This document shows, piece after piece, positions 3,068 to 36,771 of a stretch of DNA of 43,890 nt. This DNA is from Candidatus Nanoarchaeia archaeon (GTDB lineage: Archaea; Nanobdellota; Nanobdellia; Woesearchaeales; JAGLXL01), in assembly GCA_035289325.1 (NCBI GenBank), contig DATDXM010000042.1, positions 1-43,890 on the forward strand, read 5' to 3'. The notes beneath the pieces were generated by a model, which saw only the letters and a program-made list of their open reading frames with translations, searched no databases and was not told the DNA's origin. How positions within the stretch are numbered: the first letter of the stretch is position 1; each line of letters opens with the position of its first letter. A program made the position numbers and the translations under genes.

Positions 3068-3298
3068 ATGATCGAAGAAAGCTCACGCCCATTGGATGCG
3101 CTGAACGAAGCGCGCAATCGAAGAGTCATCGTTGACTGCAAGAATGGAAAGCAGTATGTCGGCAAATTGAACGCATTTGACATTCACATTAACACAGTTT
3201 TACACGACGCAGAAGAGCGTGCTGACGGCGAGATGAAAAGGAAGTTAGGCAAAATTTTTATCCGCGGCGACACAATCATAACAATTTCTCCAGAATAG
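3068..3298 (+). CDS. Sm-like (LSm) archaeal protein
   Basis: [44 protein letters not shown] ... [11 protein letters not shown] match the Sm1/Sm2 motifs. I start at the ATG at 3068 (TATA-like GTATTATATACC at 3037-3048) rather than the track start at 2963. Confidence 0.8.
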
Positions 3299-4592: not shown

Positions 4593-5234
4593 ATGTTTAT
4601 TCCTAAAAAGTGGAAAATGATAACAAGAAAACACACCATATTAGAGCCGTTCGCTCAAGAAGCATGGAAAAAGCATACCTTCGGAGAGGTTAAAAAGTTA
4701 TCTCATAACAAGTCAGATAACTATGTCCATACCACTCTTAAGCGCTTTGTTGCGTCAGGTGTACTTCAAGAACAAAAAATAGGCAACATCATTGTATATT
4801 CTTTGACAAGAGAACTAATCTCACTAACAACTGTTGGCTTTGTCGCTGAGCACAGGGCAAACGCAGCTAAATATCTGCCTCATAGAAATATCCAAAAACT
4901 CATCAACAAAATTAAAACTGCTTTCTATATTTTTATTGTTACCGGCAGCTATGCTAAGATGAAGCAGAAAGAGACTTCTGATCTGGATATAGTTATCATT
5001 TGCGACAACAGGCAAGAGCCTAATGCTGTTCTTTCTCAGATAAAACTAGAAGCTGAGTTGATGATCCCAGAAGCTCATCCATATGTTTTCACTCAAGAGC
5101 AATTTTATCAGATGCTTACAGCTAAAGAAGAAAACTATGGGAAAGAATTCGCGCGGAATAACTTCATAATATCGGGGGGGGAGGCGTATTATTCAATTCT
5201 TATGGAGGCAATCGAACATGGATTCAACGGCTAA
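4593..5234 (+). CDS. nucleotidyltransferase (MNT-type antitoxin-like) with N-terminal wHTH
   Basis: IFIVTGSYAKMKQKETSDLDIVIICD matches the GS-x(n)-DxD polymerase-beta-type NTase motif. The architecture matches 8877..9410. TATA TTTATATAA lies at about 4569-4577. Confidence 0.7.
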   Translation: MFIPKKWKMITRKHTILEPFAQEAWKKHTFGEVKKLSHNKSDNYVHTTLKRFVASGVLQEQKIGNIIVYSLTRELISLTTVGFVAEHRANAAKYLPHRNIQKLINKIKTAFYIFIVTGSYAKMKQKETSDLDIVIICDNRQEPNAVLSQIKLEAELMIPEAHPYVFTQEQFYQMLTAKEENYGKEFARNNFIISGGEAYYSILMEAIEHGFNG

Positions 5235-5334
5235 AATTTACTTGCAAAGAGCGCGTAATGAGTTCAGTGCTGCCCAGTTGTTATTTACAGTTTCAAATGA
5301 CCAAAAGAGAAAGCAGGATCTCCAATTAGTCTAA
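5218..5334 (+). pseudogene. HEPN-partner gene fragment (38 codons) truncated by element E1
   Basis: The ATG at 5218 overlaps the NTase 3' end, as in the intact pair 8877/9407. Translation is MDSTAKIYLQRARNEFSAAQLLFTVSNDQKRKQDLQLV*. The last codons and the stop lie inside the conserved left arm of E1 (AATTAGTCTAA). Confidence 0.5.
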
Positions 5335-5527
5335 TATCCATTCAGTCGTAAAAATAATGTCCTCCTCGATGGCGGCGGTCGGTCACATTGAGATGTGCCC
5401 TCCGCTCGGCGCTCAGAAGCTCGGCTTCTGGCGCCTCCAGAATTTGAGGATTTTCGAGGCATTCGCCTCGCTCCGCGCCATGGAGGACATTAATTTTACT
5501 CCAATATACAACCTACTTATTACGTAC
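5324..5527. repeat. GC-rich hairpin element E1
   Basis: AT-rich arms are homologous to those of E3. The closing stem is ATGTCCTCC(5358-5366)/GGAGGACAT(5482-5490). Internal hairpins include CACAT-TGAG-ATGTG, GCGCtCAGAAGC-TCG-GCTTCTGGCGC and CGAGG-CATTCG-CCTCG. Confidence 0.55.
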
Positions 5528-5573: not shown

Positions 5574-5719
5574 GCGGGGATGCCGGAGCGGTCAAACGGG
5601 TCAGGCTTAGGTCAGCATGATGTGTGCTACTCATCGCGAGATGAGCTGGTTACCGGCGGTCGTGCTGATAGAAACCTGATGGCTTAGTGCCTTCGCAGGT
5701 TCGAATCCTGCTTCCCGCA
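5574..5719 (+). tRNA. tRNA-Leu(UAG) with 62-nt intron (5612..5673) at position 37/38
   Basis: Manual fold: acceptor GCGGGGA/TTCCCGC; anticodon stem TCAGG/CCTGA; loop CTTAGG|intron|A; long variable arm TGGCTTAGTGCCTTC; T arm GCAGG-TTCGAAT-CCTGC; discriminator A. The intron ends pair (TCAGCAtG/CGTGCTGA), consistent with a bulge-helix-bulge substrate. Confidence 0.85.
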
Positions 5720-5794
5720 TTTTTTTGAGACTGAGCGAAGCGAATGTCTCAATATTCTTTGCTCACTTTCTTTGCAAGAAAGTGCGTCTGCTTC

Positions 5795-5814
5795 AATCCT
5801 GCTTCCCGCATTTT
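5795..5814 (+). repeat. direct duplicate of the tRNA-Leu 3' end (att-like)
   Basis: AATCCTGCTTCCCGCATTTT at 5704-5723 is repeated at 5795-5814. The roughly 70 nt between contain two hairpins (GAGAC..GTCTC; CACTTTCTT-TGC-AAGAAAGTG). Confidence 0.7.
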
Positions 5815-6119
5815 CTTTTTGTGTTTTGATGAGATGAATGTTCATTGAATGTCCGCATTAAGCTTGTAAGGTTTCATCTTTTTGGTTTCTATTTTTTAGT
5901 GATGACTTTGTTAAAACTATGAAATCGATTGTTATGGGCTTTCATTGAAATATTTCGATTTGGTGAAAAAGAAGCATTACGAAAACTTTATAAATCAAAC
6001 AAAAATAGCTTTTTTTAGATATTGGAATATGTTCCTAAGGTGAGTTTGAAACGAAACCTTAAAAAAGAGGCGCATATTTCTTTGATAGTAAGTCATAAAC
6101 ACGTGGAGGTGTTTAGATA

Positions 6120-8876: not shown

Positions 8877-9410
8877 ATGAGAGCTAAAAGTATCAAGCAG
8901 ACTATCAAAGAATACTTTTTTATTAATCCTACTGCTAAACTGCGAGTAAGAGAAATAGAAAGAACAGTTAAGCTTCCTCTCCCATCTGTCATAAGGTATT
9001 GCAGGGAACTTGAAAAAGAAAATATTTTAATGACAATTGTGGTAGGTAATGTTACTTTTTATACAGCAGATAGAGGCAGCAGGAAATTTATCTTAGAAAA
9101 GAAGCTTTACAATATAAAAGAAATATATGAATCAGGGCTTGTAGAGTATCTTCGGCAGGAATTAAGCAACCCCACAATAGTTCTCTTTGGCTCTTTTGCA
9201 AAAGGAGAAGACACGGAAGAAAGTGATGTTGATTTATATATAGAAACCCCTTCGAAGAAGAAAGTGGCGCTTGAAAGATTTGAAAAAGTGTTCCAAAGAA
9301 GTATACAGGCACTTCAACATAAGGACATATTTGTGATATCGAACTTACACTTAGCAAATAACATCATCAATGGGGTAATACTGAACGGTTATATCGAGGT
9401 TTTCAAGTGA
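8877..9410 (+). CDS. nucleotidyltransferase (MNT-type) with N-terminal wHTH
   Basis: IVLFGSFAKGEDTEESDVDLYIE is the NTase motif. It overlaps the downstream HEPN gene by 4 nt. Confidence 0.75.
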   Translation: MRAKSIKQTIKEYFFINPTAKLRVREIERTVKLPLPSVIRYCRELEKENILMTIVVGNVTFYTADRGSRKFILEKKLYNIKEIYESGLVEYLRQELSNPTIVLFGSFAKGEDTEESDVDLYIETPSKKKVALERFEKVFQRSIQALQHKDIFVISNLHLANNIINGVILNGYIEVFK

Positions 9411-9817
9411 AAGAAGCAAGCTGGGAAGATTGTTTGAGACATGAATCGACTAAAGCGGGCACACCAGACATAAAACGGGCGGAATCCTTAAAAGAGACTG
9501 CTCATGAAAGGATAAGCTTAATCAAAGAAGTAACTGAAGCAAACTGTAATTTTGTATTTGAAGATTACTATACATCATTGATTGAATTGTTGCAAGCTGT
9601 AGCTTTTAAACAAGGATATAACATTTTAAATCATATTTGTTTGGGCTATTATTTACGGGATGTGATGAAAAGAGAGGGGCTTTACATATTATTTGATGAT
9701 TTAAGATATAAAAGAAATTCTCTTACTTATTACGGAAACAGAATGGATTATGAAACAGCAAAGCAGGCAATAGAAAAATGTCAAAGAATAATAAAAGAGC
9801 TAGCTAACACATTATGA
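9407..9817 (+). CDS. HEPN-domain protein (partner of the 8877 NTase)
   Basis: 136-aa all-helical ORF translationally coupled to the NTase. It contains an LRYKRNSLTYYG region. The pairing is typical of MNT-HEPN modules. Confidence 0.65.
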   Translation: MKEASWEDCLRHESTKAGTPDIKRAESLKETAHERISLIKEVTEANCNFVFEDYYTSLIELLQAVAFKQGYNILNHICLGYYLRDVMKREGLYILFDDLRYKRNSLTYYGNRMDYETAKQAIEKCQRIIKELANTL

Positions 9818-12519: not shown

Positions 12520-12780
12520 CTTTTTTCTGATGAGGTCGTTGTAATAATCTAATTCTCGTTTGATTTTTTTGATAGTGTCCTGCTGTGTTTTCTTGTCACT
12601 GATAGTTATGAGCAGGATTGCGTCGAGGTCTTCATACACTAAAAAGTAAATACGATAGAGGTCGATTTTCTTCTCTCTGAAAAACGGATAGCCTAAAGGT
12701 TTACCAGCATTTATGTTATGCTTTAATTGCTCAATAATTTTTGTAATTCGATTTTGATATGTCAGAATACCACCAGTATT
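12505..12780 (-). pseudogene. RelE/ParE-like gene lacking its 5' end (abuts element E2)
   Basis: Manual translation gives ..YQNRITKIIEQLKHNINAGKPLGYPFFREKKIDLYRIYFLVYEDLDAILLITISDKKTQQDTIKKIKRELDYYNDLIRKKLTLS*. It aligns with 74..334. There is no start codon, and the frame runs into E2. Confidence 0.5.
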
Positions 12781-12955
12781 TTACTGGTGATATCGGGTGG
12801 TATTCTGAGCATGCTCAAGAACCATCGGCGTCCATGCCATCGGTGTATAGCGACCGAAGGGAGCGGTCACCGATGGTTCTTGACAATCTTTAGGGAGAAG
12901 CTGCATGCGTCAAATTCTTGCGTTGATAGAACGCGAACCATATTGTGGTGGAGAG
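12759..12955. repeat. GC-rich hairpin element E2
   Basis: It opens with ATGTCAGAATACCACC..GGTGGTATTCTGAGCA, the same layout as the M1/M2 opening ATGTCAGAAAC..GTTTCTGAGCA. It also has an 11-bp stem AGAACCATCGG/CCGATGGTTCT and further hairpins. The right boundary is uncertain. Confidence 0.45.
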
Positions 12956-16349: not shown

Positions 16350-16738
16350 GCGATATTGAAAATGTCAGAAACAAGGTTTCTGAGCACGATCAGAAATCTG
16401 TGGATTTCTGACGGTTCTCGCTTAGTAATAAGCTAGTCAGCATTGCTATGCTTGACACGTACCTCGGTGCTGTCGTTCGCTCGGTCAATTTTTTTATGTG
16501 CTTTATTCACAAACACCATCAGATTAAGCTGAAGAAAATCGATTCCAACGTGCTCAGAAACTTCGTTTCTGGCACCTCGCTCACTTTGTTCGGAGGAGTC
16601 AGAACATTACCAACGCTTCGCTCAGTAAAAAGCTAGTCAGCACTGTGGTGCTCGACACGTACCTTGACAGCACACGCAAAGTTACCTTTGCTAGTCGCGT
16701 TCGGCAACTGCCTCGCGACCAACACTTTTCAATATCGC
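16350..16738. mobile_element. MITE-like element M1 (389 bp)
   Basis: The TIR is GCGATATTGAAAA(T)GT ... AC(A)CTTTTCAATATCGC. The first 125 nt differ from M2 at 3 positions, and the last 68 nt are identical to M2. The segment 16429-16483 is duplicated internally at about 16618-16672. No flanking duplication was seen. Confidence 0.6.
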
Positions 16739-16928
16739 CTCGAGGTTAGAGAATTTTTATCCAGATTCAGGGATAACGAGGGGATAAGCAATGACGAGCT
16801 TCAGGAATCTTACGAAATTAATAAGAAAGACTGTGGACTGGTGCGAGCTATTGCCCGTAGCATTATCAACCGTAATGCTCGTTCAGTTCGATAGGTTTGT
16901 CAAGAACGAGTATTACATCAGTCATAAG

Positions 16929-34925: not shown

Positions 34926-35297
34926 TTAGTTCTTCAGATTCAATTCAACAAATTCCAAAAAAGAATGAAGCGCAATGAGCGGCTTGCTTGAGATGTTGCT
35001 CTCTTTGACATTGCTCTCTGAACCATCATGAAAGTGCTTTGGAAAAGTCATTATGTGCCTGTGCTTCTTATGAGGCGCATTATCGTGCCTATAGATACTA
35101 CCATCCAGCCGTTGCCAATGATACGAATATTTTTCGCCGCTTAACCAAATTTCAAGAAACGAGCCATCGCTCATAAACAAACGCAAGCTTTTTGCTGTGT
35201 TTAGGGGACCATGAGTTATAATGCCCGATAGAATAATGTCTGGAAAATCGAGAAGTGCTGCCCGCTTCAGCTCATCATAGGTATTTTCTGCATCCAC
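34926..35297 (-). CDS. TumE/DUF6516-like toxin-family protein
   Basis: YSYHWQRLDGSIYRHDNAPHKKHRHIMTFPKHFHDGSE matches the RyDNAPHH..tfPhHkH signature as I recall it. Confidence 0.5.
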   Translation of the reverse strand: MDAENTYDELKRAALLDFPDIILSGIITHGPLNTAKSLRLFMSDGSFLEIWLSGEKYSYHWQRLDGSIYRHDNAPHKKHRHIMTFPKHFHDGSESNVKESNISSKPLIALHSFLEFVELNLKN

Positions 35298-35560
35298 TCG
35301 CTCACCGCTTTTACTTTTTTACTCAAATTTTCCCAGTAAATAAGCTGTTCCCATGCGGGGTGCTCTTCAACTCGGCCTGATTCAATCTTCTGCTTCAGCT
35401 CATTCGGTGTTTCTACATCGAACTCATGTTTCAGCTTTGTAATTTCAACAGAAGCATTGCGCAACTCTCTTTCCAGAAATGCAGGGATACTTTCATCTAA
35501 TATTTTGACTTCTGAAAGTTCTAAATCCTTTGACAGCTGGGTCAGCATAGACTTTTTCAT
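35267..35560 (-). CDS. hypothetical helical protein, upstream partner of the TumE-like gene
   Basis: 97 aa, overlapping the downstream gene by 31 nt. A TATA (TTTTTATAGATATATT on the minus strand) lies upstream. Confidence 0.4.
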   Translation of the reverse strand: MKKSMLTQLSKDLELSEVKILDESIPAFLERELRNASVEITKLKHEFDVETPNELKQKIESGRVEEHPAWEQLIYWENLSKKVKAVSEWMQKIPMMS

Positions 35561-35604: not shown

Positions 35605-35945
35605 GTACGTAATTAGTCTATTATATTTATCTTTGTAAAAATGTTGTTCTTCTCTTCTGGAGGGCAGAGCCCTCTAGAAGATACAAGAGGACTAAAAATG
35701 AAATTTTTGTCCTCTATGTATCCATGGCAGCGACTGTCAAAATTTGCGAATTTTGCCTGTTGTGAGCATAGCTCACTTCCAAATCAGTCTTTTCTACGGA
35801 AAAGATGATTCTATTTCGCACGTGCTTAGAAGCGTGGCTTCTGGCACATCAAGAAGCTGAGGCTTCTTAATGATTGTTATCGTGCTTCATCGCGCCACGA
35901 AGAACAACATTTTTACTACTATTTTACGAACGACTAATTACGTAC
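35605..35945. repeat. GC-rich hairpin element E3 (largest E-type copy)
   Basis: The outer inverted repeats are GTACGTAATTAGTC (35605-35618) and GACTAATTACGTAC (35932-35945). The inner closing stem is ATGTTGTTCTTC/GAAGAACAACAT. The interior has at least 7 hairpins, for example TCTTCTGGAGGG-CAGAG-CCCTCTAGAAGA and GTGAGC-ATA-GCTCAC. Confidence 0.6.
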
Positions 35946-35954
35946 ATATAAGCG

Positions 35955-36304
35955 GCGATATTGAAAATGTCAGAAACAAGGTTTCTGAGCACGATCAGAA
36001 ATCTGTGGATTTCTGACGGTTCTCGCTTAGTAAGAAGCTAGTCAGCATTGCTATGCTCGACACGTACCTCGGTGGTGTCAACTCGCTCGGCAAAAATCGG
36101 GATGTCAGATTAACACATTTTATGCTTTCATCCTCTTATTGATTTTTGTTCCACGAAAAAGATGCAGAGCAATAGGAAAGTAGCTACTCGTACTTCGTAC
36201 CGAGACATCGGCGCCTCGCTCGTAAATCAAAGACACCACACGCAAAGTTACCTTTGCTAGTCGCGTTCGGCAACTGCCTCGCGACCAACACTTTTCAATA
36301 TCGC
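35955..36304. mobile_element. MITE-like element M2 (350 bp) with flanking 9-10 bp direct duplication
   Basis: It has the same termini as M1. (C)ATATAAGCG occurs at 35945-35954 and again at 36305-36314, immediately outside the inverted repeats. Confidence 0.65.
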
Positions 36305-36319
36305 CATATAAGCGACATG

Positions 36320-36349: not shown

Positions 36350-36586
36350 ATGACAAAAAAAAAACATTATCTTGATATTGTTATCATGAAAGAGAAATTG
36401 AGCACTGGCGCGCCAGTTTTTGTTGTTCATTGTATAAGTTTAGGAATAACGAGCCAAGGGAGCACAATTGAGGAAGCACATCGAAACATAAAAGAGGCAA
36501 TTGATTTGTATCTTGAGGAATGCCCTGAAAAGATTGATGAAGTTGCTTCAGAGAGTCCACCTACATTCTCTTATGTTGAGGTGTAG
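36350..36586 (+). CDS. hicB: HicB-family antitoxin
   Basis: VFVVHCISLGITSQGSTIEEAHRNIKEAIDLYLEE is the HicB N-terminal fold signature. The start is set at MTKKKHYL, because the track start at 36254 lies inside element M2. Confidence 0.7.
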   Translation: MTKKKHYLDIVIMKEKLSTGAPVFVVHCISLGITSQGSTIEEAHRNIKEAIDLYLEECPEKIDEVASESPPTFSYVEV

Positions 36587-36588
36587 AC

Positions 36589-36771
36589 ATGCCGAAGTTG
36601 CCGGTTGTTTCTGGGCATGATGTTCTCAAAGCACTTTCCCGCATTGGCTTTATTCATGTTCGCACTAACGGAAGCCATGCAATTCTGAAAAGAGATGGAA
36701 AAGTTGTTCCTGTGCCACTTCACAAGGAGCTGGCAAAAGGGACGTTGCTGAGTATTATCTATCAAGACTAA
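36589..36771 (+). CDS. hicA: HicA-family mRNA interferase toxin
   Basis: SGHDVLKALSRIGFIHVRTNGSHAILKRDGKVVPVPLH contains the GSH motif. Length is 60 aa. Confidence 0.8.
   Translation: MPKLPVVSGHDVLKALSRIGFIHVRTNGSHAILKRDGKVVPVPLHKELAKGTLLSIIYQD

Follow-up and report, generated by a model that had tools for sequence, protein, structure and literature searches.

A bulged hairpin with covarying stem positions in dispersed mosaic repeats of Woesearchaeota/Nanoarchaeota-type archaea

The stretch of DNA analysed here, referred to as the window, is positions 1 to 43,890 of contig DATDXM010000042.1 from a Candidatus Nanoarchaeia archaeon (GenBank assembly GCA_035289325.1). It is a piece of archaeal chromosome that encodes GINS, eIF2-alpha, eIF6, deoxyhypusine synthase, FtsY, ScpA and an S-layer-like protein; transposase or integrase genes were not found in it. 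DPANN archaea have small, compact genomes, and to our knowledge almost nothing has been reported on their non-coding DNA or their mobile elements. Within the 44 kb there are five copies of a hairpin, designated H1, all of which are parts of larger elements, either long-stem carriers (E1, E3) or MITE-like ones (M1, M2). The features are as follows:

5324..5527, plus strand: E1, a long-stem carrier with H1 and further hairpins, 46 nt upstream of an intron-containing tRNA
5409..5434, plus strand: H1 in E1, GCGC-T-CAGAAGC-TCG-GCTTCTG-GCGC (pattern, fold, 41.2 bits)
5727..5794, plus strand: 68-nt hairpin-rich insert between two copies of a tRNA 3' end, with the CTGAGCGAAGCGAA module
16350..16739, plus strand: M1, MITE-like, terminal inverted repeat (G)GCGATATTGAAAA / TTTTCAATATCGCC, centre unlike that of M2
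16362..16387, minus strand: degenerate inverted H1 (C4.A23 mismatch, G1.T26), directly beside the left terminal inverted repeat of M1 (35.2 bits)
16391-16410: H2-type hairpin CAGAAATC-TGTG-GATTTCTG beside the inverted H1 of M1
16550..16575, plus strand: H1 in the central, M1-specific part of M1 (pattern, fold, 41.9 bits)
35605..35945, plus strand: E3, of the same carrier type as E1, with at least six internal hairpins and the outer inverted repeat GTACGTAATTAGTC / GACTAATTACGTAC
35822..35847, plus strand: H1 in E3, with a T6.G22 wobble (pattern, 39.7 bits)
35851-35868: H2 hairpin AAGAAGC-TGAG-GCTTCTT, 3 nt after the H1 of E3
35954..36305, plus strand: M2, second MITE-like copy, adjoining E3, with an 8-bp target duplication ATATAAGC at 35946-35953 and 36306-36313
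35967..35992, minus strand: degenerate inverted H1 at the left end of M2, the same as in M1
35996-36015: H2-type hairpin beside the inverted H1 of M2

H1 has the consensus GYGC-T-YAGAARC-NNN-GYTTCTG-GCRC, which is 26 nt with 11 base pairs and one bulge, arranged as a 4-bp outer stem, a bulged T (T5), a 7-bp inner stem and a 3-nt loop. When the window was scanned with the pattern GYGCTYAGAARCNNNGYTTCTGGCRC, exactly three matches without mismatch were obtained, all on the plus strand (5409, 16550 and 35822), and with two mismatches allowed the two inverted copies (16362-16387 and 35967-35992, minus strand) were found; chance matches amounted to 0.00 in 100 dinucleotide shuffles. All three plus-strand copies fold as ((((.(((((((...))))))))))), with DNA fold energies of -10.7, -8.1 and -6.1 kcal/mol (z = -4.3, -5.5 and -2.9). 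A sequence-only reading of the window had reported these three hairpins, with two stem positions at which both partners change together, a third change giving a wobble, a bulged T kept throughout, and the same module in opposite orientation at the left ends of M1 and M2. All of this is indeed present: pair 2-25 is either C-G or T-A and pair 11-17 either G-C or A-T, the wobble is the T.G at pair 6-22 in E3, T5 is extrahelical in each of the three copies, and the inverted copies are there in degenerate form, with two mismatches.

Flanking motifs (TAATTAGTCTA... on the left) are shared by the two E elements, as are H1, H2, a long closing stem and an inner stem, ATGGCRGCG / CGCGCCAYG, which in E1 reads ATGGCGGCG / CGCGCCAT. 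The closing stems differ in sequence and keep their pairing, as had been claimed, and are longer than was first quoted: GTAAAAATAATGTCCTCC (5348-5365) / GGAGGACATTAATTTTAC (5482-5499) in E1 and GTAAAAATGTTGTTCTTC (35635-35652) / GAAGAACAACATTTTTAC (35899-35916) in E3. As whole elements E1 and E3 fold with z = -5.9 and -12.5, respectively, and neither is flanked by a target-site duplication. The M elements have terminal inverted repeats of 14 bp (GGCGATATTGAAAA in M2), M1 being without a clear target duplication and having its inverted pair of H1 copies 160 nt apart. Among the 114 loci collected from other genomes and metagenomes (see below; L numbers) the terminal inverted repeat of M was found only on a contig of the same organism, and no parent insertion sequence sharing the ends of M was found there. 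JGI sample C687J35174 includes two contigs that match parts of the window at 99.0% and 99.8% identity; in these same-organism contigs (L046 and L058) no empty sites were seen and E1, E3 and M2 are unchanged, L046 carrying the near-identical copy of E1. A copy related to E3 sits in an unrelated context in L050, where the E3-like element (10-300) also holds the right-end module of M.

Several other features of the window may be mentioned here. An intergenic structured element at 12770-12890 (minus strand; DNA fold z = -7.5), with the stem CAAGAACCATCGG...CCGATGGTTCTTG, contains an H1-like hairpin, ATGC-T-CAGAATACCACC...GGTGGTATTCTG-ACAT, and is probably what the sequence-only reading had named E2. 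E3 and M2 lie between two putative toxin-antitoxin modules, at 34926-35560 (minus strand) and 36384-36771 (plus strand), one consisting of a toxin of the TumE family and its upstream partner, the other being a HicB/HicA-like pair. Genes of the nucleotidyltransferase type are found at 4593-5234, next to E1, and at 8877-9817.

The tRNA downstream of E1 (5574-5817), which is probably tRNA-Leu(TAG), has an intron of about 70 nt, scores 42 bits with Rfam and was missed by ARAGORN. Its 3' end is duplicated (5704-5726 and 5795-5817): a second copy of the last approximately 20 nt (AATCCTGCTTCCCGCATTTT), counted from the T-loop on, lies 91 nt downstream, and the module of the insert between the two copies occurs also in the H1 elements of L015, L018 and L019. 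In L008 one copy of a duplicated tRNA T-arm is split precisely by an H1-H2 unit of 44 nt; moreover, H1-like hairpins lie within tRNA introns in L010 (sense) and in L008 (antisense). tRNA loci built in a like manner were observed in L001 (3840-4020), L006 (4500-4670), L008 (5190-5400 and 5428-5670) and L027 (1090-1245). They concern tRNAs for Gln, Trp, Gly and Ile and one unassigned intron-containing tRNA in L008, with duplications of 12-31 nt that begin in or near the T-loop and with inserts that hold H1 or H1-like hairpins. This layout resembles the att sites of integrases of the T-loop type, but the inserts are just 44-130 nt long. The tRNA-Gly(CCC) of L010 (2505-2727) and the tRNA-Ile(GAT) of L008 (5428-5605) have apparent introns of about 165 and 110 nt, respectively, which consist mainly of H1-like and H2-like hairpins, and both genes were left uncalled by ARAGORN and Rfam. 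In L016 (3600-3700, minus strand) about 19 nt (GGGTTCAAAT...CCCGTCCCTGGCGCTA) seem to interrupt the T-loop of a tRNA-like sequence and suggest a non-canonical intron at this place.

H1 was searched for in 185,579 species genomes; the loop, position 6 and two of the pairs, 2-25 and 11-17, were unconstrained. This gave 20 loci, 16 in archaeal MAGs and 4 in bacteria, the latter looking like chance matches. The archaeal MAGs are labelled mostly Woesearchaeota or Nanoarchaeota and in a few cases uncultured Methanosarcinales or Euryarchaeota SM23-78, and each contains 1-3 exact pattern matches. A scan of metagenomes, with positions 5 and 6 free and transitions allowed at three pairs, yielded 94 loci that fall into two classes: a low-GC class with about 50 H1-bearing loci, 42 of them non-redundant, and a high-GC class (35 non-redundant), which consists of chance or unrelated matches and which served as the control within the scan. 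The host genomes of H1 span 30-51% GC, and loops and flanks diverge. Many of the matches are at contig ends, and H1 is therefore a likely cause of assembly breaks. When E1, E3, M1 and M2 were compared by BLAST with the 114 loci, only H1 was common to elements of different genomes, L050 excepted. With the covariance model R1, copies more divergent than the scans admit were found in which stems of other sequence form the same shape, for example GCGC-T-CAGGAATTC...GAATTCCTG-GCGGC in L008, and a copy in L005 has an A instead of the bulged T.

Searches of the databases brought no known relative to light. With Rfam only the tRNA reached the gathering score, and nothing relevant appeared at E ≤ 5 over the E1 and E3/M2 regions; the H1 pattern has 0 matches in IMG/VR; and E3 plus M2 by BLASTN found nothing in PLSDB or INPHARED. 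A viral, plasmid or phage origin was rejected, all three collections being negative. In the literature we found no description of such repeats in archaea of the Woesearchaeota/Nanoarchaeota type. H1 occurs in dozens of related uncultured DPANN-type archaea, and the family looks previously undescribed.

Three copies from one genome could not show that compensatory changes had occurred independently, and the evidence for this was therefore taken from the other genomes. Since the scan patterns fixed the other stem positions, which are invariant for this reason, the comparison is restricted to the positions that were free to vary:

Pair 2-25: low-GC (n = 42), 40 Watson-Crick and 2 mismatches, 95%; high-GC (n = 35), 43%
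Pair 8-20: low-GC (n = 42), 40 Watson-Crick, 1 G.T and 1 A.C, 95%; high-GC (n = 35), 74%
Pair 11-17: low-GC (n = 42), 38 Watson-Crick, 3 G.T and 1 A.C, 90%; high-GC (n = 35), 69%
T at position 5: low-GC, 38/42; high-GC, 9/35
C at position 6: low-GC, 32/42; high-GC, 7/35

Of the eight fully paired combinations that the three variable pairs allow, six were observed, and there is one T-A transversion in addition. Among 34 distinct H1 sequences there are three pairs with changes on both sides, in 34 cells altogether, and 0 of 500 shuffles reached either the covariation score observed or the percentage paired. Two closely related sequences show the same at a finer scale. L005 (a MAG) and L064 (a metagenome contig) are 99.9% identical over 5,645 aligned nucleotides, and of the six differences between them two are the partners of pair 2-25, which is C-G in one and T-A in the other. 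At an orthologous site the C-G pair is kept in L081 and L027, a C.A intermediate is found in L010, and the loop and the flanks have diverged. A compensatory difference between related carriers was also noted in the hairpin that precedes H1 (ATGGGGC...GCCCCAT versus ATGGGAC...GTCCCAT; L034, around 615-660, and L099, minus strand, around 3155-3200). It had been proposed from the window that the structure is under selection as a folded nucleic acid, RNA or single-stranded DNA. The further copies support this: non-compensatory changes are not as frequent as compensatory ones, the low-GC pairs being Watson-Crick in 90-95% of the loci versus 43-74% in the controls.

It should be kept in mind that gene conversion between copies, or hairpin-templated repair, could give paired changes without selection on each event. 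The palindrome might accordingly be selfish or neutral and its pairing functionless, the arms being kept complementary by hairpin-templated repair, template switching or gene conversion. The double change between L005 and L064 joins two common variants and could have been produced by a short conversion tract, perfect palindromes with 3-nt centres are typical of processes at the DNA level, and the closing stems of the carriers are perfect and nevertheless differ between copies. Such mechanisms, however, would erase an asymmetric bulge, and T5 is kept in 38 of the 42 loci; beyond what pairing needs, the sequence is conserved in genomes of 30-51% GC, the loops and flanks being divergent; and the fixed spacing of H1 and H2 argues for constraint. 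Gene conversion does not explain the retained bulge or this conservation of sequence, and we consider a functionless pairing improbable.

The same asymmetry bears on whether H1 is recognised as duplex. CAGAARC-N3-GYTTCTG could be read as a dyad that is bound by a dimeric transcription factor, one conserved among these archaea, which would suit its symmetry, its intergenic location and its independence of orientation. A conserved extrahelical T on one arm, however, cannot matter in duplex DNA, a one-base asymmetry being meaningless for dyad recognition. Furthermore, the half-sites change together with complementarity kept, in at least four classes within single genomes, copies are located in tRNA introns and inside MITEs, and H2 and the carrier stems covary likewise without conservation of sequence. 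A double-stranded operator therefore appears very improbable indeed.

H1 is usually accompanied by a second hairpin, H2 (CARAA...TTYTG), mostly with a 3-nt loop and in most copies two bases after H1; positions +3 to +7 after H1 read CAAAA with 0.6-0.9 bits per position. Together the two hairpins form a unit of approximately 50 nt, which is embedded either way round in larger, otherwise unrelated carriers. The carriers are of several types: the E type, the M type, an approximately 245-nt type bounded by AATCAA, and a long-stem type of the form GTC...GAC. The third, the AACAACCTCG carrier, was found on at least seven contigs from a single metagenome, in unrelated flanking sequence, and has AATCAA on both sides in all copies; the fourth occurs in L015, L018, L019 and L060. 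The cassette may be rearranged within a carrier. For example, L015 and L060 share a carrier in which the H1-H2 cassette is inverted between them, and within one MAG an inverted H1'-H2' unit of 48 nt is present in L019 in addition to what its paralogue L018 contains. Mosaic arrays consist of H1, a linker hairpin and an inverted H1' (L019, L086) or of direct units in tandem (L092, L098, L111). In orthologous MoxR-DUF58 loci of three species the element is found at different positions and in different orientations, L094 being empty where L023 is filled. The H1 family thus behaves as a dispersed mosaic repeat like bacterial REP/BIME/REPIN, with carriers that are MITE-like.

For the H1-H2 unit itself no signature of mobility was detected, nor was a clean pair of filled and empty sites for the unit alone. 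Direct repeats of at least 11 nt flank it in 4 of 48 loci as compared with 8 of 240 controls, and no locus-specific target duplication was detected (p = 0.65), the hexamers upstream of H1 and after H2 being no more alike within a locus than between loci. Upstream of H1 there is a weak TTGAkk motif (0.2-0.4 bits per position). In three apparently orthologous loci the same H1 insertion has been kept (L010, 3140-3240; L081, 2700-2800; L027, 960-1090). There H1 is inserted at the place where a small ORF of the opposite strand has its 3' end; the C-terminus of this ORF is apparently encoded by H2 and the GATTGC that follows, and diverged direct repeats of about 27 nt flank H1.

A partner enzyme was sought in the neighbourhood. 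All-against-all clustering of 639 neighbouring ORFs revealed no recurrent mobile-element protein, and a Pfam scan of the 253 ORFs within 3 kb of H1 at about 60 loci revealed no recurrent transposase, HUH protein or integrase; these 253 ORFs were handled in two batches, and Y1_Tnp is absent from the listing of the 25 commonest Pfam families of each. That no such enzyme was found near H1 is expected if the factor acts in trans. IS6/IS240 transposases do occur near H1 in L030 and L050, and these were rejected as the linked enzyme, as their ends (GGTTCTGKTA) are unrelated to the terminal inverted repeat of M. The one in L050 (690-2108) is a DDE transposase of the IS6/IS240 family with a SWIM zinc finger, located about 700 nt from the E3-like element; that in L030 (4975-6375) is 61% identical to it and adjoins an H1 carrier.

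With respect to genes, 48 of 53 H1 copies lie outside any ORF of at least 110 amino acids, and for the remaining five the overlapping ORF looked spurious where checked (e.g., L001 and L015). Between co-directional genes 8 copies are sense versus 12 antisense, and many copies directly follow the 3' end of a gene. There is no promoter at a fixed distance from H1 (TATA-like motifs in 5 of 48), and in place of a positioned T-run after H1 there is H2 at +3. The pairing exceptions in the low-GC loci, A.C and G.T, are equally rare, and the loop bases on the H1 strand are A 90, T 36, G 26 and C 13. One sub-variant is exceptional: the G6 variant (GTGCTGAGAA) has the sense orientation in 5 of 5 loci, with a start codon 17-90 nt downstream of it, and there it precedes the Shine-Dalgarno sequence and ATG of five unrelated genes, among them those for LemA, DnaG and an XerA-like recombinase, with TATA-like boxes just upstream of it.

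These data allow the RNA and the DNA alternatives to be weighed. H1, with H2, might be a protective or regulatory stem-loop in transcripts, i.e., a stabiliser of 5' leaders or 3' ends, a processing site or a protein-binding site, which MITE-like carriers do no more than spread, as with the bacterial REP, ERIC and Correia elements. The G6 sub-variant, with its sense-only orientation ahead of Shine-Dalgarno and ATG and its TATA-like boxes, is what such a module would look like, and the A-rich loops on the H1 strand, the G.U-compatible wobble in E3 and the many copies just past gene 3' ends point the same way. It should be noted, however, that A-rich, strand-asymmetric loops fit single-stranded DNA as well as RNA. 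The excess of antisense copies between co-directional genes (12 versus 8), the lack of a promoter at a fixed distance and of a T-run after the hairpin, the fact that among the exceptions G.T is not favoured over A.C, and the antisense copies within a tRNA intron argue against an RNA module; the high conservation of sequence would not be read from a complementary transcript, and there is no Rfam match. For the whole H1 family a strand-specific role as RNA is not supported by the data, and we think it unlikely that the family is a module of this kind. Since orientation to genes is mixed and H1 lacks a promoter of its own, the folded form is more likely to be single-stranded DNA than RNA. There are precedents for such structures in DNA: some H1 copies carry the core GCGAAGC, which forms an extraordinarily stable DNA mini-hairpin (PMC13037366), and in the hairpin of IS608 an extrahelical T is a principal determinant of the strand specificity of TnpA (PMC5027513).

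Of the systems known, H1 resembles the REP/BIME/REPIN repeats (PMC2817692, PMC3116915) in being a short imperfect palindrome with an irregularity in the stem (20-40 nt by the REP criterion), extragenic, non-autonomous, arranged in mosaics and in direct and inverted pairs (L019, L086, M1), and a sequence family common genome-wide. It differs from them in that it is archaeal (DPANN), that its 5' foot is GYGC without a tetranucleotide of the GTAG type, that no RAYT or other Y1 gene was found near it among the Pfam families listed for the 253 ORFs, that the apparent copies per genome are far fewer than the tens to hundreds of the REP criterion, and that the unit is conserved across many species of 30-51% GC, whereas REPs are usually species-specific. 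The likeness to the ends of IS200/IS605 elements and of their miniature derivatives, which TnpA transposes as single strands ("peel and paste"), lies in the presence of two hairpins per minimal unit, H1-H2 having neither terminal inverted repeats nor a target duplication. In addition, the weak TTGAkk 5' of H1 and the AATCAA (complement TTGATT) at one carrier recall the ISDra2 target, which is TTGAT. As differences there are the lack of a strongly conserved target tetra- or pentanucleotide in H1 (0.2-0.4 bits per position), the lack of tnpA/tnpB among the Pfam families listed for the 253 neighbouring ORFs, the highly variable sequence of H2, and the location of H1-H2 inside carriers with ends of their own. 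Function of H1 would, as in these elements, require a folded single-stranded hairpin with an extrahelical T (PMC5027513). The carriers in turn are like MITEs (Correia, ERIC, RUP, BOX), since they are small, non-coding, highly structured and multi-copy, and since the ends of M are 14-bp terminal inverted repeats, with an 8-bp target duplication in M2 only; their architecture is modular like that of pneumococcal BOX elements. Unlike the terminal repeat of a MITE, however, H1 is an internal module of carriers with unrelated ends, and unlike terminal repeats that bind a transposase the closing stems of E vary and yet stay complementary.

Other assignments were considered and rejected: an intrinsic terminator (H1 is followed by H2 at +3, without a T-run), an integron attC site (no R''/R' cores, RYYYAAC / GTTRRRY, in H1 or the E closing stems, and in the window neither a cassette array nor an integron integrase), a kink-turn (no 3-nt bulge and no tandem G.A pairs), a bulge-helix-bulge splice motif (the bulge is just 1 nt), a retron or a bridge RNA (neither a reverse transcriptase nor an IS110 recombinase lies close by), origin recognition boxes (the arm polarity is wrong and the copies are dispersed), CRISPR repeats (no array), and a cis-regulatory or independent small RNA (mixed orientation and no promoter or terminator of its own, the exception being the G6 sub-variant).

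By analogy, then, H1 would work most like a REP unit or a hairpin of the IS200/IS605 type; what is unusual is that it is archaeal, conserved across many species and common to unrelated carriers. The retention of both sequence and structure across species, in carriers that are unrelated, implies a conserved partner that acts in trans. We therefore favour the interpretation, to which we assign a probability of about 0.45, that H1 is the core palindromic unit of REP/BIME/MITE-like mosaic repeats of Woesearchaeota/Nanoarchaeota-type archaea and is read as a folded single strand, probably of DNA, by a protein supplied in trans. With its 4-bp G/C clamp, extrahelical T, 7-bp stem and A-rich triloop, H1 would fold where the DNA is exposed as a single strand, e.g., at the replication fork. 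The folded form would be recognised by a protein encoded in trans, much as bulged hairpins are by the HUH Y1 transposases TnpA and RAYT, and this protein would propagate or maintain the unit. A more specific version goes further than this and is, in our opinion, doubtful: that the approximately 50-nt H1-H2 is itself the mobile or maintained unit, read as a bulged single-stranded hairpin by a conserved archaeal protein, either a counterpart of the REP-RAYT system or a different enzyme, that it colonises intergenic DNA, MITEs, and the introns and 3' flanks of tRNA genes, and that one sub-variant has been co-opted as an RNA hairpin in 5' leaders.

What H1 means for these organisms depends on the nature of the partner. 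If the partner is an enzyme acting on single-stranded DNA, biology of the REP/RAYT or IS200/IS605 type would be extended to a major archaeal lineage; if it binds RNA, H1 would be a cis-element that is lineage-wide. The link of H1 with tRNA introns and with duplicated tRNA 3' ends bears on the origin of unusual archaeal tRNA genes. And finally, H1 is a compact marker by which these archaeal lineages can be recognised in metagenomes.
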